A stretch of DNA of 64,000 nucleotides from Candidatus Bathyarchaeota archaeon (GCA_963771885.1 CAVYVF010000023.1:951079-1015078); one strand, 5' to 3'. Numbered from the stretch's first letter, positions 18,243-48,002 are shown. Notes: a model not told the origin generated them from the sequence alone. Translations and numbers: made by a program.

Positions 18243-19117
18243 TCAGGCGCTTCTGTCTATCTTGACGCCGCCACGTGGACCTATTGTTGCTTTCGCGTGG
18301 CGGAGCGCCCAGCACCCGATCACAATGCCGACTGGTAAGCTGGCTGGGTGCCTCGCAGCCATCTCTATGTGTATATCGAGCGCCGTCGGTCCCTCACCGA
18401 GCCCCATAGCACCGATACCGAGCTCGTTTATCTTCTCCAGTAACTCCTCCTCAATCGCGGCTATCTTGGGGTTTGGGTTCCTGACCTTGAAGGGCTTTAA
18501 GAGCGCCTTCTTTGCTAGGACCATGCACATGTCCTCGCTGGCGCCGATTCCGACGCCGACGAAGTAGGGTGGGCAGCCTTGCGAGCCCGCGGCGGCGACC
18601 GCCTCAATGACGAACTGCTTCACTCCCTTCAGCCCGAGCCCCGGCTTGAGCATCTTGTGGTTAGCAACGTTGCTACTACCGCCACCCTTGGGCATGGCGA
18701 TGATCTCCAGATTCGTTGCCGGGGATCAAGCTCCCAGTAGATGATTGGGACGTGTGCGCCTGTGTTATCGTTCGTGTTGCCCTTGAGCATATCCACCGCA
18801 TTTGGGCGTATGGGTATCTCGTCCGTCGCGCGCCTTGTCGCCTTTACGAGTATCTCATTCAGCTCCGACCTAAGGGGGAACTTATCTCCAACCTTAACCA
18901 TGAAGGCGACGACGCCTGTGTCCTGGCACATGGGCCAGGAGTTCTCCCGAGCGATGGAGATATTGTCAAGTATACTCTTTAGCTGGGATTTGCCCGTGGC
19001 GCCTTTCGTTTTCTTCGCCAGCTTGTCCATCTCCCTGACGTACTCGACAGGGAGCTCGGTGGCCGAGATCCTTAGGAGCTCGACCGCCGTATCTTCGACT
19101 ATTTTGCTGAGTGTCAT
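18243..19117 (-). CDS. Fe-S fumarate hydratase/tartrate dehydratase alpha subunit, frameshifted near 18710
   Basis: PMCQDTG, PKGGGS, GCPPYFVGVGIG, GIGAMGLG, HPASLPV...CWA. Confidence 0.9.
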
Positions 19118-19118
19118 C

Positions 19119-19715
19119 TTACTTCATCTCCGCGACTATCCTATCCCTGTTGGCATTGACTTTCTTTCCGACGTCAGCAGTAAGGTTGGCACCATGAGTA
19201 TCTATGGTGACGATGAGTGGGCCGAAGTCCTGCGTATCGTAGACCCAGAGGCACTCGGGCATGCCGAGCTCCTCAAGCCAGTAGACGTCCTTGACCTTTT
19301 TTATACCCGCGGCGCCGAGGAGGGCGGCCCCGCCGGTGAAACTTGTGTAGACGCAGCCATACTTCTGGCACGCCTTGGCGGTGCGGTCGCCCATCCCTCC
19401 CTTACCTATGATGACTGAAGGGCGGAACGCCTCGATGAAATTATCCTCAAATATCTCCATGCGGGTGCTCGTCGTAGGGCCGGCGGCTACTACCTCCCAA
19501 CCCTTTCCCTTCTTCCTCATGATTGGCCCGCAGTGGAAGACGCCGATGCCCTTGAAGTCGACTGGTAGCTTCTCACCTTTCTCGTGGAGCTCAAGCGCCT
19601 TATGGTGCGCCTCGTCACGCGCCGTGATGACCGTGCCGGTTAGGTAGACGACGTCCCCAGCCTTCAGCTTCCTTACATCCGCTTCGGGCACGGGCGTCTT
19701 CAGGTGGTACTCCAT
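19119..19715 (-). CDS. Fe-S fumarate hydratase beta subunit
   Basis: TARDEAH, HCGP, AGPTTSTRM, IIGKGGMG, ELGMPE, IDTHG. Confidence 0.92.
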   Translation of the reverse strand: MEYHLKTPVPEADVRKLKAGDVVYLTGTVITARDEAHHKALELHEKGEKLPVDFKGIGVFHCGPIMRKKGKGWEVVAAGPTTSTRMEIFEDNFIEAFRPSVIIGKGGMGDRTAKACQKYGCVYTSFTGGAALLGAAGIKKVKDVYWLEELGMPECLWVYDTQDFGPLIVTIDTHGANLTADVGKKVNANRDRIVAEMK

Positions 19716-19853
19716 AACCTTTCACTCCCACTATCTCAACCCTTCACAATTTAAAACCTGAGACTCCCGTGATTGACTCTTTTTTTACAGGTTCTGTGAA
19801 TCCGAGTCGATTTCTAGAAAAAGTATAATATATACTGCGACTAGGATTGTGAG
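19716..19853. promoter_or_regulatory. Divergent promoter region between the fumarase operon and the hdr/fumarate reductase operon
   Basis: AT-rich, with TTTAAA (about 19750) and TATAATATA (about 19824) TATA-like boxes roughly 25-35 bp from each start. Confidence 0.5.
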
Positions 19854-20273
19854 ATGTCTTCGGAGAAACAGGGGCTCGTCCTCCACCCCTCACCCGCAAA
19901 CAAGGTTTTCCGTGATCGGGTGAAGGAGTTGAGTGGCGAGAAGGTAGAGCTGTGCTTCCAATGCGGGGCGTGCAGCTCAGGTTGCCCCATGACGCAGGAG
20001 ATGGACTACCTACCTAGCAAGATCATCAGAATGGTCCAGCTTGGCCTCGAGGAGGCGCTGGACTCAAAGACCATCTGGGTGTGTACAACTTGTTTCAACT
20101 GCGAGGTCAGGTGCCCTAGGGGCATCGACATCGCCAACGTCATGGAGGCGCTCCGCCAACTCGTGCTCAGGAAGAAGTACGACAGGGTGGCGCTGGATCA
20201 GCTAAGCGACGAGCAGCTGAGGGAGCTGCCCCAGGTCGCGATAATCAGCAGTTTGAGGAAGCTCACGGCGTGA
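19854..20273 (+). CDS. hdrC: HdrC-like 2x[4Fe-4S] subunit
   Basis: CFQCGACSSGCP and CTTCFNCEVRCP. Confidence 0.88.
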   Translation: MSSEKQGLVLHPSPANKVFRDRVKELSGEKVELCFQCGACSSGCPMTQEMDYLPSKIIRMVQLGLEEALDSKTIWVCTTCFNCEVRCPRGIDIANVMEALRQLVLRKKYDRVALDQLSDEQLRELPQVAIISSLRKLTA

Positions 20274-20277
20274 TCCT

Positions 20278-21172
20278 ATGAACATCGCATATTATCCAGG
20301 TTGTACGTTGAAGACGACGGCGAAGGAGTTCGATATAAGCACCAAGGCGTCGGCCAAGGCGCTAGGTATCAACCTCGTCGAGCTCCCACGCTGGAACTGC
20401 TGCGGAACCGTTCACGCCCTCGCGAAGGACGATGTGATGCACCACCTCGCCCCTCTCCGCAACCTGCTCCGGGTTGAAGAAGCGCAACAGAGCGGAATCG
20501 TGGACGAAAAGAAGGTCGTCGCCCTATGCGCAATGTGCTACAACACGCTCAAGCGGAGCAATCAAGCATTCAACTCCGATTCCGACAAGGCGAGCAAGGT
20601 CAAGGAGAATATGAACAACGAGGCGAGCGTCTACAGTGGGCAGGTCGAGGTCGAGCATCTGCTCGAGACGCTCCGTACGCATGGCTGGGACAAGGTCGAG
20701 GCGCGTGTCTCGAAGCCCCTGAAGGGGCTCAAGGTAGCGCCTTACTACGGGTGCCTCCTGCTCCGCCCGCGCGGAATCGGCGTGGACAACGCTGATAACC
20801 CCCGCATCTTTGAGGACCTTTTAAATGCACTTGGGGCGGAGGTCATCGACTTCGGCTACAAGCAGAAGTGCTGCGGCAGCTACCACACCGTCCACATGGT
20901 GGACGTAGTAGCAGATCTGAGCAACAAGATATTGACTCAGGCTCAGGCTGCAGGCGCTGACGTAGTCGCGACGGCTTGCCCCCTTTGCGAGTACAACCTA
21001 GGGAACAGGCAAATTGCAGGTCGCGAAGAAGTATCCCAAGTTCAACGGTATCCCAATCGTTTATTTTACCCAGCTGATGGCGCTTGCCTTCGGGCTCGGT
21101 GAGGATGATACGGCTCTCGGGATGAACAAACCCGACCCGAGGCCAGTGCTCAGGGAGAAGGGGCTGATCTAG
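20278..21172 (+). CDS. hdrB: HdrB-like CCG-domain subunit, frameshift near 21012
   Basis: YYPGC..CCG..CAMC and YYGC..CCG..CPLC; corrected frame gives PIVYFTQLMALAFG and stop at 21172. Confidence 0.88.
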
Positions 21173-21173
21173 A

Positions 21174-21864
21174 ATGACTGAGAACGGCAACAACATGGTC
21201 ACCATCTACGTGATGGGTAAGAAGCAGAGCGTACCCGCCGACCTGACAATAATGAAGGCGATGGAGTACGTCGGACACCAGTTCAGGAGGGGCGCAGGCT
21301 GCAGGGGAGGATACTGCGGCGCCTGCGCCACCGTCTACAGAAAGAAGGGCAGCTACAAGCTACAGGGAGCCCTAGCCTGCCAGAAGATAGTAGAAGATGG
21401 CATGATCATAGCCCAGATACCCTTCAGTCCCCAGGAGAAGAAGACCTACAACGTCAACGAGCTCAAGGCAGAGGCAAACACCTTCCTCGAGCACTACCCC
21501 GAGATAGCCCGATGCCTTGCCTGCAACACTTGTACCAAGGCCTGCCCACAGGACATAATGGTCATGGACTACGTCCAGGCAGCCCTACGCGGCGACGTTG
21601 CCCAGGCAGCGAAGATCAGCTTCGACTGCCTAGGCTGCGGGCTCTGCGCTATGAGGTGCCCAGCCGAGATAGTGCCCTACAACGTGGGTCAGCTCGCGCG
21701 GCGCCTAGAGTCCAAGTACGTCGAGGGGCCGACGGAGCACGTCCTCAAGAGGTGTGATGAGATCAGCATCGGGCAAGTACGACGCCGAAATTGAGGAACT
21801 GAAGAAGATGGACAAGCCGACTCTTCAGAAGAAGTACAATACGAGGGAGATGAAGATCAAATGA
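21174..21864 (+). CDS. Fumarate reductase/SDH-type iron-sulfur subunit ([2Fe-2S] + 2x[4Fe-4S]), frameshift near 21772
   Basis: GCRGGYCGAC...LACQ, CLACNTCTKACP, CLGCGLCAMRCP; ATGA overlap with next gene. Confidence 0.85.
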
Positions 21865-23515
21865 GCGACTACAAGAGCGGCTACCCCGAGTACATGCAGG
21901 AGAGCCTCAGACTCGTCGCCGAGACGCGGGCGGGGAGGTTCGGCAAGGACTTCATCCCTATGACGGCGGAGCAGAGGCAGCAGATACTTGAAAAGTTCCA
22001 CCCCGACTGGAAGCCGGCAGGTGAAGAGAACGCTCGCCATCGGGCCTAGCAAGGGCATGATAATCCCCCACGAGGTCGCCGACATCCTCGAGGCCCACCC
22101 GATGGTGAAGCCAAAGGAGATCGACCTCAGCAAGGTCGACTACGACGTTGACGTGTTGATCATCGGCGCAGGCGGCGCTGGCATGAGCGCCGGTATCCTC
22201 GCAAATGAAAACGGAATCCCCGCCGATAGGATACTCATGGTTCAGAAGCTGCGCCTTGGCGATGCCAACTCGAAGATGGCGCAGGGAGGCATACAGGCAG
22301 CGGATAAGCCGGATGACAGCCCACCCATCCACTACCTCGATATCATCGGCGGTGGACACTATGCGAACAAGCCCGAGCTCGTCGAGGCAATGGTAAGGGA
22401 CGCGCCCGATGTCATCAAGTGGCACGAGAACCTTGGCGTAATGTACGACAAGCTCGCCGACGGCACCATGATGGAGATCGCTGGTGGAGGCACGAGTAGG
22501 CGTAGAATGCACAGCTGCAAGGACTACACTGGTTTGGAGCTTACACGCGTCGTGCTTGATGAGTTCATAAACAAGGGCATTGGATATGTCGAGTTCACAT
22601 GCGCCGTCGACCTGCTAATGGACGATAAGGACCAGGTCGCGGGTGCAGTGCTCTACGACCTCGACTCGAACGAGTACAAGATCGCGAGAGCGAAGTCAAC
22701 TATTCTCGCAACGGGTGGCTTCGGAAGGCTCCACATTCAGGGATTCGCGACTACGAACCACTATGGTGCGACTGGCGATGGAATAGTGATGGCTTACCGC
22801 ACGGGCGCGGTCCTCAGGGACCTCGACTCGACGCAGTACCACCCGACAGGTGCTGCCTACCCCGAGCAGATAGTGGGTCAGCTCGCCACCGAAAAGCTCA
22901 GGGGGCGCGGAGCACAACCCGTCAATAAGAACGGGGAGCTCTTCGTCTACCACCTCGAGCCACGCGACATAGAGTCCTCCAGCTACATCAGGGAGTGCTA
23001 CGAGAGGGAGATGGGCATAACCACCCCGACTGGGATGCGCGCCGTCTGGCTCGACACACCCCAGATCGAGGCCGTCAACGGACCTGGCACGATAGAGCGC
23101 GAGTTCGCCGCAATGTTCCGTACTCTTCAAGAAATTCGGCATCGACATCCGCAAGGAGCCGATGGCAGTCTTCCCGACCCTCCACTACCAGAACGGGGGC
23201 GTCGAGATAAATGCGAAGACCGAGACAAGTGTCCCCGGACTCTTCTGCGCCGGCGAGGTCTGCGGAGGCGTACACGGCAAGAACCGCCTAATGGGAAACA
23301 GCCAGCTTGACATCTACGTTTTCGGCCGCAGGGCGGGCAAGTACGCTGCCGAGAGGGCGAAGACCGCGACAGTCGGTAAACTGACTCTCGCTCACCTCGA
23401 CCGCTACGACAGGTGGCTAGACGAGGCGGGCATCAAGACGGACCGGAAGGCTCCGCTCCTGCTCCCCGAGTATAGGGGACAGAAGACACTCGAGCATAAG
23501 CTGAAGCTGCTGTGA
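21861..23515 (+). CDS. Fumarate reductase-type flavoprotein (TfrA/FrdA-like), frameshifts near 22015 and 23120
   Basis: IIGAGGAG, AQGG, QYHPT, TEKLRG, PRDI, LHYQNGG, HGKNRLMGNS. Confidence 0.85.
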
Positions 23516-23520
23516 TTGAC

Positions 23521-25880
23521 ATGACTGACACGCCTAGGATCGGCGTCTGGCTCTGCGAATGCGGAGGCAACATCGGCGACGTCGTCGAGACAGACACGGT
23601 AGTCGAGACGTTGAAGCCCGAAGTCGCCTTCGTCAAGAAGGAGAGGTACCTCTGCAGCAAGCCTAGCGTCGACGCAATCAAGGAAGCTGTCGAGAAACAG
23701 AAGCTCGACCGGGTAGTACTCGCCTGCTGCACCCCAAAGATGCACAGAGAGACGTTCCTCAGCAACCTCGCGGAGAAGGGGGTCAACCCCGCCTATCTCG
23801 AGATGGTGAACGTCAGGGAGCAATGCAGCTGGGTCCACAAGGAGGACCACGAAGGCGCAACACTGAAGACGATGGACCTGATACGCGGTGCGATTGCACG
23901 CGCCAAAGAGTCAGTCGCCCTTGAGTCGAAGAGGATGAAGGTCATCCCCGAGGCACTCGTCATCGGCGGAGGCGTCGCGGGCATCACGACAAGCCTTCGC
24001 CTCAGCGAGTTCGGGATGAAAGTCCATCTCGTCGAGAAGCGTCCAAGCATCGGGGGGCACATGATTCAGTACCCAAGGTCTTCCCGACCCTCGACTGCAG
24101 CCAGTGCATACTAACCCCGAAGATGGCTTCGGTGAGCCAGAGCAGGAACATCGATCTCCTCACATACGCTGAGGTCGAGGATGTCTCCGGTGTCCCCGGC
24201 GACTTTAAGGCAAAGGTCCGGCTCAATCCGCGCGGCGTTGATGTTTCGAAGTGTATCGGTTGTGGCGCATGTAGCCGGGTCTGCCCGACGAAGGTGCCCG
24301 CAGAGCACGATCAGGGTCTCGGTACACGCAAGGCAGCATACATACCGTTCCCGCAGAGCGTCCCAAGCGTCTACACGATCGACTTCGAGCACTGCATCCG
24401 CTGCGGCGCATGCGCGAAGGTCTGTCCGCGCCAGTGTATCGACCTCGACGACCCCGGCTCCTCGAAGGAGCTGAAGGTCGGTGCGATCGTGATGGCGACA
24501 GGCTTCGAGCTATTCGACCTCTCGGGCTTAGTCCAGTACGGCTACGGGAAGTACCCGAACGTGGTGACGAGCCTCGAGATGGAGAGGATACTCGACGTCA
24601 ACGGGCCGACGGGCAGCCAGCTCATTGTGCCGAAGACTGGGAGACCAGTGAAGACCGTGACCTTCGTCCTCTGCGCGGGTAGCCGAGATACGGAGGTCGG
24701 TAGGGCTCACTGCAGCCGTGTCTGTTGCCTCTACAGCATGAAGCAGGCTCAGCTCCTCAGGGACAGGGGCGTCGAGGTCTGGATCCACTACATCGACATC
24801 AGGTCGCCGGGGAGGCGATACGAGGAGTTCTATAGGACGACGCAGGAGAAAGGCGCCAACTTCGTGAAGGGAAAGGTGACGGAGATCGTCCCCGACGGCG
24901 AGCAGGTGCTCGTGCGCAGCGAGGACATGATGCTCAACAAGATGATCGAGTACCAGAGCGACCTCGTCGTGCTAGCGCCACCAATCGTGACGACGCCTGA
25001 GACGCTAAAGCTCGCGGAGATGCTGCGTGTTCCTGTTGACGAGGATCAGTTCGTCCTCGAGAGGCACCCAAAGCTCGACCCGATGTCGACGAAGCGAGAC
25101 GGAATCTTCGCGGCGGGCACAGTTGTCGGCCCGAAGGACATCCAGTCAACGACGGCAGAGGCTGAAGGCGCCGCAATGAAGGTGGTCAACTTCCTCCACG
25201 TCGACAGGGTCATCGAGCCCAACAAGGCTTGGCTCGCCCACCCCGAGCTGTGCGATGGCTGTGGTAAATGCGTTGAGCCGTGTCCCGAGTCGGCGATCAC
25301 GATGGCCGACGGTAAGCCGGTCGTGAACGAGATTATGTGCACCGGCTGCGGAGCATGCATTCCCTCTTGTCCCAAGAACGCGCTTGACCAGCAAGGGCTT
25401 AGCGAGGCCCAGATCAAGGCCCAGATCAGAGGCGCACTCGAGGGCTCTAAGGCTGAGCTGAAGATACTCGCCTTCGTGGAGAAGGAGGTCGCGTACACGG
25501 CGGTGGACCTCGCGGGGCTCGCACGCCTACCTTACCCGAGCAGCATCAGGATAATCCCGATGCCCTCACTGGCGAGGCTCAAGCTGGAGCATCTCCTCTA
25601 CGCGTTCGCCTACGGTGCGGACGGTGTGATGCTGCTGGAGGCCCCCGCGCATGAGGGTCCATATGGCCACGCCCACGTCCTCGCTGAGGAGAGGGCGGAC
25701 GAGTACAGGTGGGCCCTCGAGGACCACGGCGTCGACAGCAGCAGGATGTGGTTCAGCAGGGTCTACGTACCTGACTGGAGGAAGCTGGAGAGGGTCTTCA
25801 AGACCTTCAATGACATCATCGACGGTGAGGGACCGATCGATGAAGGCGCGAGGAAGAAGCTCCTCGAGGAACTCTCCTAG
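23521..25880 (+). CDS. hdrA: HdrA fused to a cysteine-less MvhD-like domain, frameshift near 24075
   Basis: CECGGNI, CCTP, REQCSWVH, IGGGVAG, KVFPTLDCSQC, ferredoxin inserts, CSRVCCLYSMK; C-terminal DLAG..R..YP...GADGV. Confidence 0.9.
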
Positions 25881-25966
25881 GCCTCAAGTCGGCGCATGAG
25901 GTCGTTTTATTTTTTCATCGGTCTCGTTCTCACTGGCACTCGGGTTTTCGAAGTCCTCGACGAGTG

Positions 25967-26440
25967 TTAATAAGTAGCCTTAATCTTCTCGACAAACGTC
26001 TTCGTAGTCTCCTTAAATGCCCCGGATTTAGCGTCCCCCGTCGTTATCTCTTTTGTAGCGACGGGCGCCTTGCCCACGAGTCCCTCCATCACCTTGAAGG
26101 TCTCGCCCGCCTTGCTGCCCATCGTGCAGAAGAAGGCGACGCGCGGGAATTTGCTCTTCATTGCGGCTAGGTAGCTGCGGACTGGGCTTGAGACGTTCCA
26201 CGCCCAGATAGGGGTACCGACGATGATGATGTCGTATGTCGACGGGTCCGCCTTCGGCGGGTTGATGGGCACGATGGCTCCATCGGATCCCTCCTTGCCT
26301 GACCTTATCCAGCCGAGCGGGCCGCCACGTCCCTTTGGCTCTGTGATCTCCTCGATGTCTGCCCCAAGCTGTGCTTTCAGCTCCTCGGCGACCTTACGGG
26401 TGGCCCCGTCGCGTGAGTAGTAGACGATGAGTATCTTCAT
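25967..26440 (-). CDS. Flavodoxin-like protein
   Basis: VYYSRDGATRKVA, GTPIW, AFFCT. Confidence 0.85.
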   Translation of the reverse strand: MKILIVYYSRDGATRKVAEELKAQLGADIEEITEPKGRGGPLGWIRSGKEGSDGAIVPINPPKADPSTYDIIIVGTPIWAWNVSSPVRSYLAAMKSKFPRVAFFCTMGSKAGETFKVMEGLVGKAPVATKEITTGDAKSGAFKETTKTFVEKIKATY

Positions 26441-26479
26441 GGAGCTGAGTCCCTGGATCGATGATAAAAACGTGCCCGT

Positions 26480-27728: not shown

Positions 27729-27796
27729 ATCAGCCCTCGCTAGCCTGTTTAGGACAGATTGGGCGTGTTTCGGATATAAGGTGACGAGGTCTAAGG

Positions 27797-29897: not shown

Positions 29898-29941
29898 GGG
29901 AATCAGTCTGGATAATGTCCTGCTGTCTATAATGATTGTCT

Positions 29942-33434: not shown

Positions 33435-33435
33435 G

Positions 33436-36411: not shown

Positions 36412-36413
36412 AC

Positions 36414-37183: not shown

Positions 37184-37195
37184 GGCTGATCAATC

Positions 37196-40100
37196 ATGGA
37201 AAAGACAGGCAGCGTACTGGTCGTCGGCGGAGGAATAGCGGGTATACAGGCTGCCCTCGACCTCGCCGACAGTGGGTTCAAGGTCTACATGGTGGAGAGG
37301 GAGCCGAGCATCGGCGGCGTGATGACGCAGCTCGACAAGACGTTCCCCACGAACGACTGCGCCATGTGCATACTCGCCCCCAAACTAGTCGGCGCGGGTC
37401 GCCACCCAAACATTAAACTCCTCACCTACAGCGAGGTCAAGTCCCTCGAGGGGGAGGAGGGCAATTTCACCGCCACCATCCTCAAGAAGGCGCGCCGAGT
37501 CGACCCCGCCAAGTGTAAGGGCTGCGGCGACTGCGCCGCAAAGTGCCCCGCATCCGCCATAGACACCTATAACGCCGATCTCAACGACCGGAAGGCGGTC
37601 TACATTCGCTTCAGCCAAGCCGTCCCACTCACATACGCGATTGACAAGGACAAGTGCCTCGGCTGCGGGATCTGCAGCGAGGTCTGCAAGGCCGACGCCA
37701 TCAAATACGATGATGTCGACGAGGAGCTGAAGCTCAACGTCGGTTCTGTCATTCTCGCCCCCGGCTTCGAGGCATTCGACCCGAGCAAACTCTCGGAGCT
37801 CGGCTACGGCAGGTACCCGAACGTTGTGAGTAGCGTCGAGTTCGAGCGCATACTCAGCGCCACAGGGCCATACAGCGGCGTCGTTCTCCGCCCAAGCGAC
37901 GGAGACATGCCGAAGAGGGTCGCGTTCCTCCAATGCGTCGGCAGCCGAGACGCCCGCGTGGGCAACCCATACTGCAGCGGCGTCTGCTGCATGTACGCCA
38001 TAAAGGAGGCGGTCATTGCCCAGGAGCACAACCCTGGCCTCGAGGCGAGCGTCTTCTTCATGGATATACGCGCCTTCGGTAAGGAGTTCGACGACTACTA
38101 TACGCGAGCCGAGCACGAGCACGGCATCAAGTTCATAAGGAGCAGAGTAGGGCACGTCGAGCAGGACCCCGAGTCGGCTGGCCTCTACCTCACCTACGAG
38201 GAGGGTGGCGACGTCAAGCGTGACCGCTACGATATGGTGGTCCTCGGCGTCGGCCTTAACCCGCCGAAAGGCGCCGAGCAGCTCAGCAAAGCGATGGGAT
38301 TCACACTAAACAAGTACGGCTTCGCCGAGACCAAGCTCTTCAGCCCACTCGAGACGAGCAGGAAAGGAGTCTACGTCTGCGGGGCTTTCAGCAGCCCTAA
38401 GGACATCCCTGACAGCGTCGCGCAAGCAAGTGGCGCAGCCGCTAAGGCGGCAAAAGCAATCTCAAGCGTCCGGGGGACGCAGATCAAACCCGTCGAGTTC
38501 CCAGTGGAGCGTGACGTCGCTAACGAGGATCCTCGCGTCGGTGTCTTCGTCTGCTGGTGTGGAATAAACATCGGTGGAGTAGTTAACGTTCCCAGCGTCG
38601 CCGAGTACGCGAAGAAGCTCCCTAACGTCGCCTACGCCGAGGAGAACCTCTACACCTGCAGCCAGGACACACAGGATAGGATTAAAGAACACTATAATCG
38701 AGCACAAGCTCAACCGCGTCGTCGTCGCTTCATGCACGCCTCGCACACACGAGCCTCTTTTTAGGGCCACTCTACGCGAGGCGGGGCTTAACGAGTACCT
38801 CTTCGAGATGGCGAACATACGCGACCAGTGCAGCTGGGTGCACATGCACGAGAGGGAGGCCGCTACTAGGAAGGCGGAGGACCTAGTCAGGATGGCCGTC
38901 GCTAAGGCGAGCCTCCTCCAACCTCTGGAGAAGCATAAGATACACGTCACCCCCGGCGCATTAGTCGTCGGCGGAGGCGTCAGTGGCATGACCGCCGCCT
39001 TAGAGATAGCAGACCAGGGCTTCGAGGTCCACCTCGTCGAGAAGGAGGAGGAGCTCGGAGGCAACATGAAGAGGATTAAGTTCCTCCCCTCTGGTGAGGA
39101 CCCCGCCGCGGAGCTAGCGAAGCTAGAGGCGCGAGTCAAGACCAACCCAAAGATCAGTCTCTACACCGGCACTCAGGTGGCGGAGGTCGACGGATACGTC
39201 GGCAACTTCGAGACCACCCTAGCAAGCCCAACGAAGGAGACGCAGATTAAGCACGGCGTCGTCGTCGTCGCCACGGGCGGCGTCGAGTACACGCCTAAGG
39301 AGTACGCCTACGGAAAGACACCCCGACGTCATGACCCAGTTCCAGCTAGAGGAGAAGCTCCACGCACGGCTACAAGCCCGACACTGTGGTGATGATCCAA
39401 TGTGTGGGCAGCCGTAACGAGGAGCACCCGAACTGCAGCCGTGTCTGTTGCACTGGCGCCGTCAACAACGCCTTAAAGGTCAAGGAGGTGAACCCACGCG
39501 GCCGACGTCTACATACTCTACAAGGACATGAGGACATACGGATTCAAGGAGGACTACTACCGCGCAGCGGCGGACAGGGGCGTCGTCTTCATCAGGTATG
39601 ATGACGAGCACAAGCCCGAGGTCACAGCTGAGGGCGGGCTGAAGGTCAGAGTCCTTGACCCTGTACTCAATGAGAACGTGGTTATCGAGCCCGACGCCTT
39701 CGTCCTCAGCGCGGGCGTGCTGCCTGCCGCCGATAACAAGCGCCTAGCTGGGATGCTCAAGGTCCCCATAAGCAAGGATGGATTCTTCCTCGAGGCGCAC
39801 ATGAAGTTGCGCCCGCTTGACTTCGCGACGGAGGGTGTCTACCTCTGCGGGTTGGCACACGGCCCGAAGACCATCGATGAGTGCATAAGCCAGGCGTGTG
39901 GAGCAGCGTCGAGGGCGCTGACGATCCTGAGCCACGACGAGATCGAGGCAGAGGGAGCAATCGCCAGTCGTAGACGAGGACGCCTGCAGTGGATGCCAGA
40001 TGTGCGCCGCTGTTTGCGAGTTCAAGGCGATAGAGATGGTGAAGAAGGGTGACAAGACCCACAGTCACGTCATCTCCGAGGTCTGCAAGGGTTGCGGAGT

Positions 40101-40200
40101 CTGCGCGGCGACATGCCCGAGCGGGGCGATCACGGTTGGTCACTTCACCGACCAGGAGATACTTAGCCAGGTCAAGGCAGCACTGGAGGCGAGACGATGA
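37196..40200 (+). CDS. hdrA: Tandem (double-FAD) HdrA, about five frameshifts
   Basis: Same domain order as 33436-36411 but fused: [59 protein letters not shown]. Confidence 0.88.
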
Positions 40201-40629
40201 GCGAATACGAGCCAAAGCTCGTCGGCTTCCTCTGCAACTGGTGCAGCTACGCCGGCGCCGACCTCGCGGGGGTGAGCAGGTTCCAGTACCCGACCAACCT
40301 GCGCGTAATACGCGTCATGTGCAGCGGCAGGGTACACCCCGCCCACATTCTTGAGGCTTTCAAGGACGGCGCTGACGGCGTACTAGTCGCCGGGTGCCAC
40401 ATCCCGACGGACTGCCACTACATCTCGGGCAACTTCAAGGCGCAGCGCCGAGTCGCCATGGTCAAGAAACTCATGGAGCAGCTCGGTATAGAGCCCGAGC
40501 GCCTCCGCCTAGAGTGGATAAGCGCAGCGGAAGGCGACAAGTTCGCAAAGACGATACGCGAGATGACGGAGGACTCTGAAGAAGCTGGGCCCGAGCCCCG
40601 TGGCGAAGGTCCTCAAGGAGGCCAACTGA
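40197..40629 (+). CDS. mvhD: MvhD [2Fe-2S] subunit, frameshift near 40575
   Basis: [39 protein letters not shown]. Confidence 0.92.
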
Positions 40630-40630
40630 C

Positions 40631-41143
40631 ATGGCACAAACAGAGATCAGGATCACAACCGAGGGCAAGGAGTTCCGCAACGAGGTCATGGCGACCCACG
40701 GCGCGGACAAGCTCATGCACTGCTACCAGTGCGGCACATGTACCAGCGACTGCCCCGTCGCCAAGCGCGTCCCTGAGTTCCGCCCACGAAACATCGCCCG
40801 CCTTGCCATTTACGGTCAGAAGGATCGCCTCCTAGACGGAGACCTCGTCTGGCTCTGCGCTGGTTGCTACACATGCTACGAGAGGTGCCCACAGAAGGTC
40901 CACGTCAGCGAGATAGTAAGCGCCCTCAGGCAACTCGCTCTCAGGGAGGGTAAGATACACCCTACAATCAAGTCCATAGTCACAACAATCCCCAAGCATG
41001 GCTACATCAGCGAGATCGGGGAGTTCGAGAACGAGATGCGCGGCGAGGACGGGCTACCACCTGCGCCCACACCCGCAACTGAGGAGATCAAGGCTATTAT
41101 GAATAAGACCGGCATTCTCGGCCGCGTCGGAGGCGAGAAGTGA
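40631..41143 (+). CDS. hdrC: HdrC-like subunit
   Basis: CYQCGTCTSDCP and CAGCYTCYERCP. Confidence 0.9.
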   Translation: MAQTEIRITTEGKEFRNEVMATHGADKLMHCYQCGTCTSDCPVAKRVPEFRPRNIARLAIYGQKDRLLDGDLVWLCAGCYTCYERCPQKVHVSEIVSALRQLALREGKIHPTIKSIVTTIPKHGYISEIGEFENEMRGEDGLPPAPTPATEEIKAIMNKTGILGRVGGEK

Positions 41144-42004
41144 TGAAGTACGCATTCTTCGTCGGTTGCACAGTGCTAAGCAGGCTCCCTGGCTATGAGA
41201 AATCTGCCCGGAAGGTAGCGGAGAAGCTGGGGGTCGAGCTCGTCGACATGCCCGGCTCAAGCTGCTGCGGTACAACCTACATGGAGACACTCGACAGGAA
41301 GACAGCCCTCGCCCTCGCCGCCCGCAACATTGCAATCGCGGAGGAGATGGGTCTCGACATCGTCACGGTCTGTAACGGCTGCACCGAGAACCTCACCAAG
41401 ACTAATAAGGCCCTCAAGGAGGACCCCGCGCTCCTCGCCGAGGTTAACGAGATACTCAAGGAGACCGGCAAACAGTTCAAGGGCACCGTCAAGGTCAAGC
41501 ACTATGTCCGGATGCTCAAGGAGGACGTCGGCCTTGACAAGGTTAAGGCGGCGAGCGTAAAGCCCTTCAAAGGGCTCAAGGTCGGCGCCCACTACGGGTG
41601 TCACCTCCTCAAGCCGAGCGACGAGATGCTCTTCGAGGACCCCAACGACCCCAAGGTGCTCGACGATCTCGATCGACGCAACCGGGGCGGAGAGCGTCGA
41701 CTACCCGAGTAAGACCGAGTGCTGCGCCGGTCCAGTGATGGGCATCCGTGAGAAAGTTACCTGGGATGTCGGCATGGATAAGGTCCAGACATTGAAGAAG
41801 TACGCTGATGCAATGGCAACCTGCTGCCCCTTCTGCTACATAACATACGAGAGGTGCCAGTTCATGACCGAGACCAACCCTAACCTACCCGTCGTACACA
41901 TCCCCCAGTTGCTCGGCCTAGCGATGGGCCTCACAGCCGACGAGGTCGGCCTCAGCACTAACAAGGTGGACGCCAGCTCCCTGCTGGCGAAGCAGGAGGC
42001 ATAA
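41140..42004 (+). CDS. hdrB: HdrB-like subunit, frameshift near 41670
   Basis: FFVGC..CCG..CNGC, HYGCH, ECCAG, CPFC, QLLGLAMG. Confidence 0.88.
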
Positions 42005-42006
42005 AC

Positions 42007-42976
42007 ATGGAGAAGCTCAAGTTCGGCTTCTACTGGGCCGCGAGCTGTGGAGGATGCGAGATCGCTGTCCTAGACGTCGATGAGAAGATTCTCGACGTCC
42101 TGCAGATAGCGGACGTCGTCTTCTGGCCCGTCGCCATGGACGTAAAGTACAAGGACGTGGAGGCGATGGCGGATGGCTACATGGACGTCTGCTTCTTCAA
42201 CGGCGGCATACGCAACTCAGAGCAGGAGCATCTAGCGAAGCTACTCCGTAAGAAGGCGAAGTATATGGTCGCCTTCGGCGCTTGCGCCCAGCTAGGCGGT
42301 GTTCCCGGCCTCGCCAACCTCAGTAACCCCAAGGACATCTTCGAGAGGGTCTACCATACGACTGAGTCGACGGACAACGAGGCTGGGACGGAGCCGCAGG
42401 TGAAGCACACCCTCCCCGAGGGAAGCTCTGAGATATCCTGTCTTCCAAGCGTCCGTGAGACCCCTCGACCAAGTCATCGCTGTCGACTACTACCTCCCCG
42501 GCTGCCCGCCGCCACCCAAACTCATCTTCAACGCCATCGACGCCATCGCAAAGGGGCAACTACCCCCAAAAGGCAGCATACTCGCACCCGAGCTCGCCGT
42601 CTGTGATGAGTGCCCACGTAAGAAGGAGGAGAAAAAGGTCGCACACATCAAGAGGGTGATCGACTTCACCCCCGAGCCAGAGAAGTGCCTGCTCGAGCAG
42701 GGGCTAGTCTGCATGGGGCCGGCGACGCGTGGCGGCTGCGATGCAAAGTGCCTCGGCGCCAACATGCCGTGCACAGGCTGCGGAGGCGCGTGCCCCGGAG
42801 CCATTGAACAAGGATCAGCGATGATCAGTGCACTCTCGACAGTTCTCGGGTTAGCCGGCGAGAAGGGGGAGGAATACGACGTCGACGCGGTCATGGCGCA
42901 GCTGAAGGATCCCGTAGGAACCTTCTACAAGTACGCGCTTCCCGCCTCCATAATCGGCAGGAGGGTAAAGAAATGA
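42007..42976 (+). CDS. mvhG: [NiFe]-hydrogenase small subunit (MvhG), frameshift near 42430
   Basis: ASCGGCE, FGACAQLGGVPG, LPGCPP, CLLEQG..CMGPATRGGC...CTGC. Confidence 0.92.
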
Positions 42977-44428
42977 AGACCATAACCATCGACCCCATCA
43001 CGCGGCTTGAGGGCCACGGCAAGATCAGCATCTTCCTAAACGACGCGGGCAACGTGGAGAACGCGTACCTTCAGATCCCGGAGCTCCGCGGCTTCGAGAA
43101 GTTCTGCGAGGGGCGCCGCGCTGAGGACATGCCCATCATCACGCCCCGCATCTGCGGGGTCTGCCCCGTCGCCCACCACTTCGCTGCCACGAAGGCGCTT
43201 GATGCCTGCTTCGGCGTCGAGCCCACCGAGACGGCGAAGAAGCTCCGTGAGCTCATGTACGTCGGCTACTACGTCTACGACCACACCCTCCACTTCTACT
43301 TCCTCGGTGGACCCGACTTCGTCGTCGGCCCCGACGCACCCGCCTCGGAGCGTAACATCTTCGGCGTCCTCAAGCGCGTCGGCCTCGACGTGGGTAGGGA
43401 GGTCATAAAACACCGCGCCTACGGGCAGAGGATCACCGAGATCATCGGCGGTAAGGCGACCCACCCAACATGCGGTGTCCCCGGAGGCATAAGCAAGGGA
43501 CTTAACGAGGAGGAGCGCCAGAAGATTGAGGAGATGGCGCGCAGCAGCGTCGAGTTCGCCAAATTCACCCTCGGCGTCTTCAACGACATCGTCCTCAAGA
43601 ACAAGCAGTACGTCGACATGATACTAAGTGACCCCTACCGCCTCGACGCCTACAATATGGGCCTCGTCGACGCGAACAACCACGTCAACTTCTACGACGG
43701 CGACGTACGCGTAACTGACCAGAAGGGGAAGGAGTTCGACCGCTTTAAGGGTGGGGACTACCTCGACCACATAGCCGAGCGCGTCGAGCCGTGGACATAC
43801 AGCAAGTTCACCTACCTGAAGAAGGTGGGGTGGAAGGGGCTCACTGCTGGTCCGGAGAGCGGTGTCTACCGCGTCGGCCCGCTTGGGAGGCTCAACGCAT
43901 CGGAGGGCATGGCGACGCCCCTCGCCAACGCCGAGTACAAGCGCATGTACGAGACACTTGGTGGTAAACCCGTCCAGTCGACGCTCGCCTTCCACTGGGC
44001 ACGCCTTGTGGAGCTCCTCTACGCGGCTGAGCGCGCCGTCGAACTAAGCACTGACCCATCCGATCACCAACACCGATCTACGCAACCCCGTTGGTAAGCC
44101 CGGCGAGGGCGTGGGTGTAGTCGAGGCAGCCCGCGGCACACTCTTCCACCACTACAAGCTCGACGAGGAGGCTATGGTCAAGAAGGCCAACCTCATCGTC
44201 GCGACAACAAACAACTACGCCGACATCTGTTGTAGCGTACGGGATGCCGCCAAGGGTCTTATCAAGAACGGTGAGGTCACGGACGGCCTCCTCAACAAGG
44301 TCGAGATGGCGTTCCGCGCATACGATCCCTGCTTCGGATGTAGCACACACACCCTACCCGGCGAGGGGCCGTTAACCGTGGAAATAGTGGATTCGACTGG
44401 AAGAGTCATGAAAAGGCTCTCCCGGTAA
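42973..44428 (+). CDS. mvhA: [NiFe]-hydrogenase large subunit (group 3c, MvhA), frameshift near 44060
   Basis: TRLEGH, RGFEKF, L1 RICGVC, EAARG, L2 YDPCFGCSTH plus cleavable tail. Confidence 0.93.
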
Positions 44429-44632: not shown

Positions 44633-44638
44633 ATGTCC

Positions 44639-44981: not shown

Positions 44982-45081
44982 GTTACATCCACCACACAAT
45001 ATGTTGTGTTATTCTAACACTGTGTTAGAACTACCACACTAAAGATATAAGCATTATGGTGAAGAGGCGAAAACCCAGGTC

Positions 45082-45914: not shown

Positions 45915-45973
45915 GTCGTGGCTTCGCTGGAAACGGCTAATCTTTAACCTTCTCTGCGAAGAGTGTCTTTGTC

Positions 45974-46426
45974 ATGAGGAGCCTCGTCGTCGGCGTCGGC
46001 AACCTGCTTTGCACGGACGATGGCGTGGGTATACACGTTATCGAGAGGCTCGACGCACTGCACCGTGGGGTTGAGACCATCGACGCGGCGATGGGCAGCA
46101 TCGAGATTATCGAGGCAATGAGGGGTTACGACCGGGCGATCATAGTTGATGCGATCCAGACGGGTGCAGATCCCGGTGACATACACAGGGTGAACTTGGC
46201 TGCGGGTGAGAAGCCTCCCAGGTTAACTCACAGCCACGGTACAGATATCCTAACCACGATCCAGCTTGGCTACCGTCTCTACGGGGGGGAGATGCCGCGT
46301 GAGATCACGCTCATCGCTGTCGAGGCGGAGGACATGACCACCATAAGCGACAAATTAACGCCAATGGTCGAGAAGGCAGTCGCCGAGGTCATCAATATCA
46401 TACTGGGTCTCGTCGGCGTTGCCTGA
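45974..46426 (+). CDS. Hydrogenase maturation protease
   Basis: GVGNLLCTDDGVG, IIVDAI, HSHG. Confidence 0.92.
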   Translation: MRSLVVGVGNLLCTDDGVGIHVIERLDALHRGVETIDAAMGSIEIIEAMRGYDRAIIVDAIQTGADPGDIHRVNLAAGEKPPRLTHSHGTDILTTIQLGYRLYGGEMPREITLIAVEAEDMTTISDKLTPMVEKAVAEVINIILGLVGVA

Positions 46427-46466
46427 TTCTAAAATATTAATAACCGTAAAGGCACTACAACCACCT

Positions 46467-46898
46467 ATGGTTAAGCTAGAAGGGTTCGATTTCCCCGACG
46501 ATCTATACTTCCACCGTGAGCACATGTGGGTCAAGGTCGAGGGTGACAAGGTCCGCGTCGGCTACAACGACTGGGCGCAGAAGGCGGCTGGCAAGCTTCT
46601 CAGCCTAAAGACGAAGCGCCCCGGTGCCCCGGTGGAGATGGGCAAGACTCTGGGCAGCATCGAGTCTGGAAAGTGGGTCGGCAGCCTCAAGGTTCCCGTC
46701 ACCGGGGAGCTCGTACAGCTCAACGAGGACGTCCTTAAGACGCCGAACCTGATTAACAGCGACCCTTACGGTAAGGGTTGGGTCGCAATGATCAAACCCA
46801 GTAAGTTGCAGGATGAGCTCAAGATGCTCATCAGCGGTAAGGATGCTGCTGGGCTCGAGGCTTGGCTGAAGGAAGAGCGCGCCAAGGCGAAGGCATAG
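46467..46898 (+). CDS. Lipoyl-carrier protein, GcvH fold, LbpA-like
   Basis: FPDDLYF..EHMWV, lipoyl-lysine in IESGKWVG, INSDPYGKGW. Confidence 0.88.
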   Translation: MVKLEGFDFPDDLYFHREHMWVKVEGDKVRVGYNDWAQKAAGKLLSLKTKRPGAPVEMGKTLGSIESGKWVGSLKVPVTGELVQLNEDVLKTPNLINSDPYGKGWVAMIKPSKLQDELKMLISGKDAAGLEAWLKEERAKAKA

Positions 46899-46910
46899 GG
46901 GTCTGAGACC

Positions 46911-48002
46911 ATAGAGAACTGGAGACTCGTCGACCTAGGTCACCCTGAGCCGCTCATAGCGCAGGCCTTTTACGAGTCAGTCGCCGAGGCTGTGGAGCGG
47001 GGAAGCAGCCCTAATACCCTGATCATGCTTCAGCCGGGCGCGCCTTACGCTTGCGTCGGATACCACCAGGACCTGGAGAAGGAGCTCGACCTCGATTATT
47101 GTAAAAGTGTTGGGTTACCCATCATCCGCAGGAGTCAGGGGGGAGGGGCGACGTACCTCGATGGTAGTCAGGTCTTCTACCAGATTGTCGCGAAGAAGAC
47201 AGGCGCATTCCCCAAGGCGGTCGACGAGATGTTCAAGAAGCTCCTCACCGTTACCATCGAGACCTACCGCCACTTCGGCGTCCCGGCGGAGTTCAAGCCT
47301 CTGAACGACGTCGTTGCTAGGGGCAAGAAGCTGAGCGGTAACGGCGCGAGCATGAACGGCTCCACCTCTATCATGGTGGGGAACGTCATCCTCGACATGA
47401 ACTATGAGATGATGGCGCGCGTCCTCCGGGTCCCAGATGAAAAGTTCAGGGACAAGATGGCGAAGAGCATGAGGGACTGGGTGAGCAGCCTCAAGGCTGA
47501 GTTGCCCAACCCCCCAGACGGCGAGGAGGTGAAGCGCGTCTACCAGAGGGCGTTTCAGGAGCTCCTCGGCGTGAAGCTATCGAAGGCGGAGCCTACGGCG
47601 GAGGAGTGGCGCATCTACGATACGGAGACGAAGCCCCGGAACCTGAGTCACGAGTGGCTCTACATGGAGGCGCCTTATTCGACCCGTAAGCCGGGGAGAG
47701 CCGTAAAGATCGCGCACGAGGTCAAGGTCGTCGAGGTTGACCACAAGGCGGGTAAGCTGATACGCATCAGGACCGAGACGAAGGGCGATGAGATACTCGA
47801 CATTAGGATAACTGGCGACTTCTTCACAATCCCAAAGGAGGCGATATTCCACCTTGAGGATGCTCTCAGGGGCAAGCGCCTCGAAGAGGAGACGCTACGC
47901 GCAGCGGTAAAGGGATTTTACGATGATGAGAAGCCGGAGATGCCCGGTGTCGGCCCCGAGGATGTCGTGCAGGCGCTCCTAAAAGTCAAGGCGCTGCTCT
48001 AG
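46911..48002 (+). CDS. Lipoate-protein ligase with C-terminal LplB-like domain (sLpl(AB)-like); probable ATA start
   Basis: WRLVDLG, VGYHQ, RRSQGGGATYLD, KKLSGNG, IRITGDFF. Confidence 0.88.
   Translation: MENWRLVDLGHPEPLIAQAFYESVAEAVERGSSPNTLIMLQPGAPYACVGYHQDLEKELDLDYCKSVGLPIIRRSQGGGATYLDGSQVFYQIVAKKTGAFPKAVDEMFKKLLTVTIETYRHFGVPAEFKPLNDVVARGKKLSGNGASMNGSTSIMVGNVILDMNYEMMARVLRVPDEKFRDKMAKSMRDWVSSLKAELPNPPDGEEVKRVYQRAFQELLGVKLSKAEPTAEEWRIYDTETKPRNLSHEWLYMEAPYSTRKPGRAVKIAHEVKVVEVDHKAGKLIRIRTETKGDEILDIRITGDFFTIPKEAIFHLEDALRGKRLEEETLRAAVKGFYDDEKPEMPGVGPEDVVQALLKVKALL

Follow-up and report, generated by a model that had tools for sequence, protein, structure and literature searches.

Gene content of the locus

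The window is a 64,000-nucleotide stretch of DNA from a Candidatus Bathyarchaeota archaeon (GCA_963771885.1, CAVYVF010000023.1:951079-1015078). It is assigned to Bathyarchaeia, and the source genome is 92% complete with 6.7% contamination. All of the genes named in a first-pass annotation of the region between positions 18243 and 48002 were found in the order given there, and four corrections were added (Table 1). The two fumarase genes (fumAB) lie together on the minus strand at 18243-19715. Together with the adjacent hdrC, hdrB, Fe-S subunit, flavoprotein and hdrA genes and a malic enzyme gene they make up what we call module A. Positions 32075-44428 hold another Hdr cluster, which contains mvhG and mvhA, two mvhD genes, two hdrCB pairs and two double-domain (type II) HdrA proteins, one of which is split into two genes. 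We refer to this intact Mvh-Hdr, plus the GcvH-like carrier and ligase genes that come after it, as module B.

The region is not a single operon: at 25967-30406 and 44595-45914 it is broken by genes on the opposite strand. The content of both insertions varies between relatives, and the first lies outside the conserved module. Single base pair indels split at least 12 genes of the region. The genes broken here are unbroken in relatives, and the indels at 21765, 22023, 23121, 24071, 35593, 35711, 35872, 37065 and 37122 are absent from close-strain contigs. The frame breaks therefore look like assembly errors, and the genes of the region are real.

Table 1. Features of the region, in window coordinates
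Feature	Coordinates	Strand	Remarks
Fe-S fumarate hydratase alpha subunit	18243..19117	-	Frame break near 18715; NF004885 (intact relative 310 bits, cut-off 276)
Fumarate hydratase beta subunit	19119..19715	-	TIGR00723, 210.7 bits, above cut-off
HdrC, module A	19854..20273	+	
HdrB, module A	20278..21172	+	Both CCG Cys sets; YYGC-L; one frame break
Fe-S subunit, module A	21174..21864	+	[2Fe-2S] and 2x[4Fe-4S] motifs, no CCG domain; single frame break near 21765
SdhA/FrdA-family flavoprotein	21861..23515	+	550 aa in relatives; two frame breaks
HdrA with fused MvhD-like domain, module A	23521..25880	+	Frame break near 24071
Variable antisense insert	25967..30406	-	Flavodoxin, M20 peptidase, DMSO-reductase-family molybdoenzyme, GNAT
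Malic enzyme	30602..31942	+	Immediately 3' of hdrA in many relatives
HdrC and HdrB, pair 2	32075..33439	+	HdrB Cys-His motif kept
Split type II HdrA, then MvhD	33436..37183	+	435 + 557 aa in relatives; MvhD with C-terminal extension, cysteines intact
Type II HdrA and MvhD	37196..40630	+	HdrA about 1005 aa, two thioredoxin-reductase-like domains; MvhD cysteines intact
HdrC and HdrB, pair 3	40631..42004	+	Nearest to methanogen HdrB; Cys-His motif kept
MvhG and MvhA ([NiFe] hydrogenase)	42007..44428	+	Both CxxC metal-binding motifs
Hydrogenase maturation protease	45974..46426	+	TIGR00072, above cut-off
GcvH-like 'KW' lipoyl carrier	46467..46898	+	Lipoyl Lys in ESGKWV, no Cys
Lipoate-protein ligase	46911..48002	+	Catalytic and C-terminal domains; start approximate

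Module A: an Hdr-linked flavoprotein

Module A is conserved throughout the order and in many anaerobes. The Fe-S gene accompanies the flavoprotein at all 20 loci of relatives, HdrA, HdrB and HdrC together at 18, fumarase at 17 and malic enzyme at 14. Among 53 distant loci the corresponding counts are 46 for the Fe-S gene and 28 for HdrA+B+C, and KOR (16), SucCD (7) and mvhA (5) also occur. The synteny in relatives exceeds chance, and the earlier proposal of a genetic link between Hdr and a soluble enzyme of the fumarate-reductase type is borne out. The cultured Ilyobacter polytropus carries the same Fe-S-flavoprotein pair (56% identity) after hdrBCA and flxDCBA-like genes, adjoined by aspartase.

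The flavoprotein has an N-terminal extension of about 90 amino acids and lacks both the covalent-FAD histidine and a C-terminal helical domain. It contains the catalytic residues of fumarate reductases: H327, E344, R368, H441 and R475 are invariant in 12 aligned relatives and match what we take to be the FrdA/SdhA catalytic residues in numbering and role. The best NCBIfam match is TfrA (NF004900, 314.6 bits for an intact relative against a cut-off of 718), and the protein falls below every curated cut-off. Its description in the first-pass annotation as Tfr-like thus stands for the chemistry, but not for membership of the family. With an Fe-S subunit, no CCG domain or membrane anchor, and synteny with hdrABC and fumarate-forming enzymes, the pair appears on gene criteria to match a hypothesised class, the Hdr-linked soluble fumarate reductases. 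No FeS-CCG fusion was found among 15 longer Fe-S homologues, which is weak evidence.

The scores below cut-off, including that against NadB (264.9 bits, cut-off 452.75), could also be read as a sign that the flavoprotein acts on L-aspartate or another enoate and that the fumarase link is regulatory; distant homologues (40-45%) are present in aerobes that lack Hdr. However, the dicarboxylate-site residues are conserved, fumarase, malic enzyme, aspartase, SucCD and KOR recur as neighbours, and a relative, G021, has a true NadB at another site (532 bits). We regard a different substrate as extremely improbable.

The HdrB of module A keeps both CCG cysteine sets. The histidine following the second-site cysteine, which is present in three PDB alignments and is presumably a cluster ligand, is replaced in every module A sequence compared. 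The HdrA has a full set of Fe-S and FAD motifs, with the bifurcation residues K408 and E355 invariant in 26 sequences, and scores 806.8 bits in the HdrA2B2C2 comparison (cut-off 1100). Its fused MvhD-like domain is well-folded and cysteine-free. None of the five [2Fe-2S] ligands is retained in 24 of 33 copies and two are retained in the other nine; the window copy and 18 order-level relatives have none. The cluster-less domain also occurs in two HdrA genes from other contexts, and so is not exclusive to module A, while two HdrA-MvhD fusions near the genome's second Mvh keep all five cysteines. Because the VhuD/MvhD cluster is described as the connection to the bifurcating FAD (PMC13518236), a domain without these ligands leaves no textbook-style hydrogenase feed into module A HdrA. 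HdrA2B2C2 of Methanosarcina acetivorans shares the HdrA-MvhD fusion, but its MvhD domain is reported to hold a [2Fe-2S] cluster (PMC5296606) for which the module A copy has no ligands.

Clusters resembling module A have been published as Hdr-linked 'tfrAB' or 'novel fumarate reductase' in tubeworm symbionts and Thioflavicoccus (PMC6315080, PMC11636981), as a succinate operon of the Hdr-linked fumarate reductase type in Pseudoclostridium thermosuccinogenes (PMC7282089), and as a TFR-OGOR-Fum-SCS-Mvh-Hdr cluster in Ca. Celaenobacter (PMC8542988). In all of them the soluble FeS-flavoprotein is encoded by two genes that adjoin HdrABC and rTCA-branch genes. Bifurcation to ferredoxin with fumarate as the sink has been proposed for them, either direct or with a thiol or a carrier protein in between. 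One Ca. Celaenobacter locus is among the module A matches and Ilyobacter represents the Flx form; for P. thermosuccinogenes and the tubeworm symbionts the comparison made here covers gene layout. Module A differs from the published clusters in having neither Flx nor an intact MvhD, and the hydrogenase-Hdr here is a separate type II HdrA cluster with the KW carrier next to it.

Module B: Mvh-Hdr with a lipoyl carrier

Module B contains the MvhA [NiFe] CxxC motifs, the MvhD [2Fe-2S] cysteines, the HdrA cluster motifs with Lys and Glu, and the HdrB cysteine sets. It shares with methanogen MvhADG-HdrABC (PDB 5ODC; PMC13518236 and PMC5861303) the NiFe motifs, the MvhD cysteines, the Lys/Glu of the first HdrA domains and the HdrB Cys-His motif, but differs in its type II HdrA, two hdrCB pairs and lack of methanogenesis. 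What Mvh-Hdr does in Bathyarchaeia has been termed unclear (PMC9534799).

The lysine of the KW carrier aligns with the lipoyl lysine of solved H proteins. The carrier forms a branch separate from canonical GcvH, and 28 of 30 carrier ORFs have no cysteine (two have one). The protein does not qualify as a canonical glycine-cleavage GcvH: it scores below the TIGR00527 cut-off (92.2 against 115.85 bits; just above that of the broader NF002270) and is not linked to gcvT/P. A canonical GcvH lies with gcvT on another contig. The KW carrier lies within 7 kb of an HdrB/CCG gene at 18 of 24 Bathyarchaeia loci, which are kin and collapse to about six gene contexts, compared with 0 of 5 other GcvH-like loci. 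This proximity supports a link between lipoyl and Hdr, and agrees with the earlier suggestion of a lipoyl carrier. At seven loci of the window's genus, mvhA and the protease gene are succeeded by those for the carrier and ligase. LipA was not found in the genome and motif scans gave no obvious LipS1/S2 radical-SAM candidate, so the carrier would rely on salvaged lipoate.

A GcvH-like carrier with its own ligase near hdr genes is also seen in LbpA of sHdr and in the Culexarchaeia GcvH, which lies in an Ehe-SdhA-HdrA2B2C2 cluster (PMC6067878; PMC9723716). LbpA shares the lipoyl lysine; however, its two conserved cysteines near the termini, missing from some archaeal LbpAs (PMC6067878), are absent from the KW carrier. 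In the window, unlike in these systems, no lipoate-synthesis genes adjoin and the partner is an Mvh-type hydrogenase. A lipoyl disulfide has already been suggested as the HdrB partner where CoM/CoB synthesis is absent (PMC9723716).

The earlier statement that the window has no mcr, CoM/CoB-synthesis or dsrC genes was in line with genome-wide searches: mcrA and dsrC were not found, and comA and, above cut-off, comD were found in none of 41 genomes, although these absences rest on incomplete MAGs. The CoM/CoB search comprised comA, comD and mcrA. The same searches revealed gcvP and gcvT as part of a complete glycine cleavage system away from the window (GcvP, GcvT, canonical GcvH), along with E2 and Lpd.

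The thiol:fumarate reductase TfrAB of Methanothermobacter, reportedly described by Heim et al. in 1998, resembles module A in that a single cluster holds a soluble SdhA-type flavoprotein, an Fe-S subunit and a CCG protein. It differs in that the module A flavoprotein has the N-terminal extension and no C-terminal domain, in that TfrB joins Fe-S and CCG domains in one chain, and in that CoM/CoB markers were not found in the window's genome.

Two apparently separable modules

Module B adjoins module A at 7 of 20 relatives' loci, all in the window's genus, the only genus in which this adjacency was seen. Neither a KW-type carrier nor a ligase occurs at any of 73 other module A loci, where the two gcvH matches belong to canonical gcv operons. 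In G021, a single contig that is 92% complete with some stretches masked, module A is present and MvhA and the KW-type carrier were not found. The best GcvH-like match was inspected for 30 of 46 distant genomes bearing module A and was KW-type in 15 and of another type in 15; in the 16 genomes beyond these 30, matches are weak or absent. The two modules thus look separable, and module A does not appear to need module B or the carrier. Synteny accordingly upheld the conservation of module A, but not the earlier idea of a single dedicated, co-conserved system.

The counts above weigh against a coupled cycle, in which module B would bifurcate H2 electrons to ferredoxin and the oxidised lipoyl carrier, and module A HdrB would re-oxidise the carrier and reduce fumarate, as do the Cloacimonadota with mvhGA in the cluster, whose GcvH-like matches are weak (30-37% identity). 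Several observations nevertheless speak for such a cycle. Mvh cannot feed module A directly, so a diffusible shuttle would be needed; CoM and DsrC markers were not found; and the carrier and ligase stand behind mvhA and the protease in the window's genus. For 2 H2 + fumarate + 2 Fd(ox) overall, the computed energy change is -24 to -45 kJ at 10-100 Pa H2, in keeping with the earlier view of fumarate as a sink for H2 electrons, and fumarate could hold the lipoyl pool oxidised. We judge an obligatory cycle of this kind unlikely, though worth serious consideration.

Direction and electron donors

We tentatively favour, at a little short of an even chance, a pair of soluble enzymes that can be separated but lie side by side in the window's genus; their substrate, direction, donors and the carrier's role we infer from sequence. 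Module A would be a quinone-independent fumarate reductase whose FeS-flavoprotein pair reduces fumarate supplied by malic enzyme and fumarase, with electrons arriving via its own HdrA-HdrC-HdrB and none directly from the hydrogenase. As the MvhD domain cannot bind [2Fe-2S], electrons would enter from a thiol at HdrB or, at HdrA, from either reduced ferredoxin or F420H2, the latter being an option since cofE is present in the genome. Together with succinyl-CoA synthetase and KOR (SucCD and KOR are encoded elsewhere in the genome), module A may form a linear branch from pyruvate to 2-oxoglutarate that also serves as an electron sink. Citrate synthase was found in one of 41 genomes and in none of the window's order, and no isocitrate dehydrogenase scored above cut-off; neither was found in the window's genome, which fits a linear branch. 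Module B would be a genuine Mvh-Hdr. The KW carrier encoded behind it, once lipoylated, is its likeliest disulfide partner, and through this carrier A and B may swap electrons in the window's genus. Against such a partner, lipoamide sits at -290 mV, poorly suited as the high-potential acceptor when H2 electrons are bifurcated (+17 to +38 kJ at 10-100 Pa H2, equimolar couple).

Alternatively, in a peptide fermenter running glutamate via 2-oxoglutarate and succinyl-CoA to succinate, module A could oxidise succinate to fumarate, confurcating with reduced ferredoxin, while module B vents dihydrolipoyl/NADH and ferredoxin electrons as H2. The genome encodes several 2-oxoacid:ferredoxin oxidoreductases, Lpd, E2 and glycine cleavage, and the computed values, taken in reverse, make dihydrolipoyl + Fd(red) -> 2 H2 favourable when H2 is low. 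However, the flavoprotein lacks the covalent-FAD histidine, an absence that favours reduction, the Ilyobacter pair adjoins aspartase, and succinate + Fd(red) -> lipoyl disulfide would cost 22-31 kJ. Peptide-fermenting Bathyarchaeota can make reduced ferredoxin without Mvh-Hdr (PMC9534799) and succinate oxidation has been proposed for the SdhA-Hdr-GcvH cluster (PMC9723716), but P. thermosuccinogenes, with the same operon layout, produces succinate (PMC7282089). The oxidative direction seems to us distinctly unlikely.

The invariant K408 and E355 would also suit an inverted Hdr, in which a low-potential dithiol donates at HdrB and the HdrA FAD splits the electrons, one to ferredoxin and one to fumarate through an FeS-flavoprotein docked at the former MvhD cluster site. 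The FeS-flavoprotein genes often lie directly 3' of mvhD or hdrA, and the reaction is feasible with dihydrolipoyl (-22 to -31 kJ), not with CoM/CoB (+26 to +36 kJ). We found no precedent, though; the KW carrier is not evident in many genomes bearing module A, and cluster-less HdrA also occurs apart from the flavoprotein. This arrangement is very doubtful.

Implications

Hdr-coupled fumarate reduction and a GcvH as the Hdr disulfide are already-published hypotheses (PMC6315080, PMC8542988, PMC7282089, PMC9723716). As the concept is in print for other lineages, the gain here is a sharper test and not a new idea. The question at stake is what substitutes for CoM-S-S-CoB in the Hdr enzymes of non-methanogens. 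The locus supplies two systems that could be expressed for such a test. One is the small lipoyl carrier, a candidate substrate of HdrB, together with its ligase; the other is a widespread and probable soluble fumarate reductase in which HdrA no longer has the usual electron entry point. It is a long shot that the lipoyl group of the KW carrier is the Hdr thiol/disulfide of Bathyarchaeia and that module A sends dihydrolipoyl electrons to fumarate and ferredoxin as an inverted Hdr. If so, each H2/fumarate cycle would contain two steps that reduce ferredoxin, with Mvh-Hdr recharging the carrier, and none that involves a quinone, CoM or the membrane. Should the carrier prove functional, abundant sediment archaea would have in lipoate a protein-bound counterpart of CoM/CoB.

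State of the assembly

Gene calls and domain scans recover the whole set of genes named in the first-pass annotation, in the order it gave. The region is not a single operon, as two antisense inserts interrupt it. Single-base indels break at least 12 window genes. Because the same genes are unbroken in relatives, and the indel is missing from close strains' contigs at nine listed positions, we treated the breaks as assembly errors, and residue-level tests were run on intact relatives instead of the broken window copies. The source genome has a completeness of 92% and a contamination of 6.7%, and the closest named records of the flavoprotein in a database search are Bathyarchaeia MAGs. Likeness between the window and the relatives' loci ends at ~53.6 kb; the low-GC stretch beyond is probably a chimeric join with another archaeon's DNA.

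Locations of the features discussed (C, contigs of the window's own genome; L, fetched loci)
Feature	Location	Remarks
Module A	window 18243-31942	fumAB (divergent), hdrC-hdrB-FeS-flavoprotein-hdrA, malic enzyme
Module B	window 32075-44428	second Hdr cluster, mvhG/mvhA; then protease, KW carrier and lipoate ligase to 48002
Antisense inserts	window 25967-30406 and 44595-45914
Extended MvhD	window 36414-37183	120-residue C-terminal extension, no Pfam family; kept in genus and family
Argininosuccinate-lyase-family gene	window 47999-49489	convergent with ligase; position kept in genus; second member at C2:114278
Contig end	window 53700-64000	GC drops from ~58% to ~39%; second, divergent thermosome, 52-56% identity to genome's other copy
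Second Mvh-Hdr	C2:119994-141855	two HdrA-MvhD fusions, cysteines intact; no adjoining hdrBC
Three further HdrB genes	C7:75591-79674; C23:764946-766312; C20:171-1549	one comes after NuoEFG-like genes
Third GcvH-like gene (L033)	C23:382823-386060	apparent arsenite-efflux/arsenate-reductase pair on one side; two DGC-domain genes and an OsmC-like gene on the other
kor operon	C23:895794-900349	followed by three DsrE-like genes
Facing Hdr genes	L210:8996-14507	hdrC-hdrB-ligase facing carrier-hdrA; MvhD domain of that HdrA also cluster-less
KW carrier	L096:7106-10380 (also L095, L097, L099, L100)	directly after NarI-like membrane subunit, HdrD-like CCG protein and UbiA-family prenyltransferase
Distant FeS-flavoprotein homologues	L199:7219-10822; L200:7261-10827	aerobic Proteobacteria; 40-45% identity; NuoF-like gene next in place of Hdr

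A putative soluble fumarate reductase

When aligned, the module A flavoprotein retains the catalytic-residue positions of FrdA/SdhA and has no histidine for covalent FAD. It has an N-terminal extension of 90 residues and no C-terminal helical domain, and its structure model is of low confidence (pLDDT 61.6). Its scores fall far under the cut-offs of both the TfrA and NadB models, as might those of an enzyme acting on another substrate. The retained catalytic positions point the other way, and we consider that reading very improbable.

The FeS subunit contains [2Fe-2S] and two [4Fe-4S] motifs. Domain and motif scans found no CCG domain (the HdrB-type cysteine domain) in it, and therefore, unlike TfrB, it would be unable to oxidise thiols alone. 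Its longer homologues (15 matches) consist of FeS joined to FlxA-like, flavoprotein or truncated HdrA genes; they resemble assembly read-throughs rather than true fusions, and are thus evidence of gene order only. A predicted complex of the FeS subunit with module A HdrA scored 0.00 in a run without controls and was weighed neither way.

Module A HdrB retains both cysteine sets. The histidine of solved HdrBs, which also occurs in the window's other two HdrBs, is absent from every module A copy read. An SdhE-like assignment was rejected, as the other two HdrBs match that model equally well (166, 171 and 175 bits).

Module A HdrA retains its clusters and the bifurcation Lys/Glu, and its model (pLDDT 87) aligns with solved HdrA across ~640 residues. 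The C-terminus is an MvhD-like domain, well folded in the model, without [2Fe-2S] ligands; no MvhD chain is among the structural matches listed for the HdrA model. Among 33 HdrA-MvhD fusions (a duplicate and an HdrA lacking the fused domain were excluded), 24 have none of the five cysteines and nine have two. As an internal control, both fusions adjoining the genome's second Mvh have all five. Two copies of the cluster-less fusion were also seen apart from the flavoprotein. By contrast, published HdrA-MvhD fusions bear a [2Fe-2S] cluster, according to the available parts of PMC5296606 and PMC12054007. Since the MvhD/VhuD cluster joins hydrogenase to the bifurcating FAD (PMC13518236, available part), module A should not be able to take electrons from H2 in the textbook way.

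Distribution of module A

A flavoprotein match (E < 1e-100) occurs in 27 of 33 genomes searched of the same order, counting the window's own, and in no genome of the eight searched from other orders of the class. We fetched 20 of the order's loci for neighbourhood counts; the flavoprotein is accompanied by FeS in all 20, HdrA+B+C in 18, fumarase in 17 and malic enzyme in 14. Scanning species genomes yielded 58 loci, of which five from Bathyarchaeia (82-100% identity) were dropped so that close kin were not counted twice. The remaining 53 span other Bathyarchaeia, Thermoplasmata, Cloacimonadota, WOR-3, Marinimicrobia, Anaerolineae and others. In these loci, many of which are short contigs, we found FeS (46), HdrA+B+C (28), intact-type mvhD (16), the 2-oxoacid:ferredoxin oxidoreductase KOR (16), SucCD (7), fumarase (6), malic enzyme (6) and mvhA (5).

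Members of the large FeS-flavoprotein family occur in gut Clostridia, among others. In Ilyobacter polytropus, a bacterium in culture, the pair (56% identity) follows an aspartase gene, hdrBCA and flxDCBA-like genes. The arrangement in aerobic Proteobacteria suggests an NADH-fed version. RNA-library contigs from two studies match parts of module A at ~95% identity, although such contigs are no proof of transcription.

Module B and the KW lipoyl carrier

Module B comprises a pair of type II HdrA, one of them split, two MvhD whose cysteines are intact, two hdrCB pairs, and MvhG/MvhA carrying both NiFe motifs. The genome's second Mvh-Hdr lies between a por-type operon and NfnAB-like, glutamate dehydrogenase and group 4 hydrogenase genes, in that order. 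The argininosuccinate-lyase-family gene beside the ligase reaches 248 bits against the XcbC CoM-synthesis model, whose cut-off is 575.

The window's GcvH-like protein is cysteine-free, has its lipoyl lysine within ESGKWV (the KW carrier) and forms a branch separate from canonical GcvH. It is an extra copy, because the genome also has a canonical GcvH adjoining gcvT, as well as GcvP, E2 and Lpd. LipA was not found in a genome search and motif scans revealed no obvious LipS1/S2, so lipoate would need to be salvaged.

Among Bathyarchaeia, the KW carrier has an HdrB/CCG gene no more than 7 kb away at 18 of 24 loci, compared with none of five other GcvH-like loci. The automatic tally was 16 of 23, to which we added two missed CCG neighbours and one truncated, neighbourless KW carrier. 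These loci fall into roughly six settings: Mvh-Hdr, a NarI-like and HdrD-like pair, HdrB with group 4 hydrogenase, hdrCB alone, hdrCB-ligase-carrier-hdrA, and CCG-bearing dehydrogenases. In this kin-biased sample, the proximity lends real support to a link between lipoyl and Hdr.

The NarI-like and HdrD-like pair is a possible membrane HdrDE-like partner of the KW carrier. DsrE-like genes flank KW carriers at three loci (L168, L169, L172). The third GcvH-like gene is a lipoyl-type carrier within a probable arsenic-resistance cluster. At six loci of other Bathyarchaeia (L104, L105, L179, L180, L183, L185), a VKAV-type GcvH-like gene adjoins, instead of gcvT, a flavoprotein that by sequence appearance is CoA-disulfide-reductase-like.

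Relationship between the modules

The first-pass annotation united both modules in a single dedicated system, which the synteny survey does not bear out. Module B genes do adjoin module A in seven of 20 relatives' loci, every one of this genus. Neither ligase nor KW carrier was seen in any of 73 module A loci, where the two gcvH matches are canonical gcv operons. For 46 distant module A genomes, the best GcvH-like match was read in 30, with 15 of KW type and 15 of other types; the other 16 gave weak matches or none. The relative G021 (one contig, 92% complete, parts masked) has module A, and neither MvhA nor the KW carrier was found in it. Given the genus-only adjacency, the carrier-free loci and G021, the modules look separable, and a dedicated cycle through both is somewhat unlikely.

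Genome context and energetics

Beyond the window, mcrA and dsrC were not found in the genome, and comA and comD were found in 0 of 41 genomes each (comD above cut-off). Citrate synthase occurs in one of 41 genomes and none of this order, IDH in none above cut-off in the genomes searched, and KOR and SucCD are present, which argues for a linear pyruvate-to-2-oxoglutarate branch rather than a full rTCA cycle. As cofE is present (above cut-off in 26 of 41 genomes), F420H2 stays a possible donor at HdrA.

Potentials were taken from the available parts of PMC5861303 and PMC6067878, and the ferredoxin potential was set to -450 or -500 mV by assumption. At 10-100 Pa H2, the reaction of 2 H2 with fumarate and 2 Fd(ox) is computed to yield -24 to -45 kJ. 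With an equimolar lipoyl couple as acceptor, bifurcation of H2 costs +17 to +38 kJ at 10-100 Pa and yields -7 to -17 kJ at 1 bar; at the lower pressures it would thus need a pool held oxidised, or run towards H2. The latter would suit an oxidative role, succinate use with H2 evolution, which we judge unlikely. Bifurcation to fumarate and ferredoxin is feasible from dihydrolipoyl (-22 to -31 kJ) and not from CoM/CoB (+26 to +36 kJ). The former is compatible with an inverted module A performing thiol-fed bifurcation, which seems quite unlikely.

Proposed function

Related systems have been proposed, according to the available parts of the following papers. PMC6315080 suggested Flx-Hdr bifurcation towards OGOR as well as a thiol:fumarate reductase, directly or via thiol, to which PMC11636981 added co-expression and the option of a DsrC-like carrier. 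PMC7282089 covers the succinate operon of P. thermosuccinogenes and refers to a preprint about the enzyme. An H2/Mvh version is given for Ca. Celaenobacter (PMC8542988), and Tfr-Hdr synteny for Mnemosynellales (PMC9635834); GcvH-bound lipoyl is proposed as the disulfide of HdrB in a cluster that also encodes SdhA (PMC9723716).

By the features tested, the region does not belong to TfrAB, HdrA2B2C2 or LbpA, the sHdr lipoyl carrier. The reading we tentatively favour as the most likely is that module A is a putative soluble fumarate reductase and module B a Mvh-Hdr that would act on the lipoyl carrier. Electrons would enter module A from a thiol at HdrB, or from ferredoxin or F420H2 at HdrA; coupling of the modules would be possible in this genus, and optional. 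The region is a real, conserved arrangement whose putative function resembles that of the Hdr-linked fumarate reductases already hypothesised in print, and of which it would be a variant.
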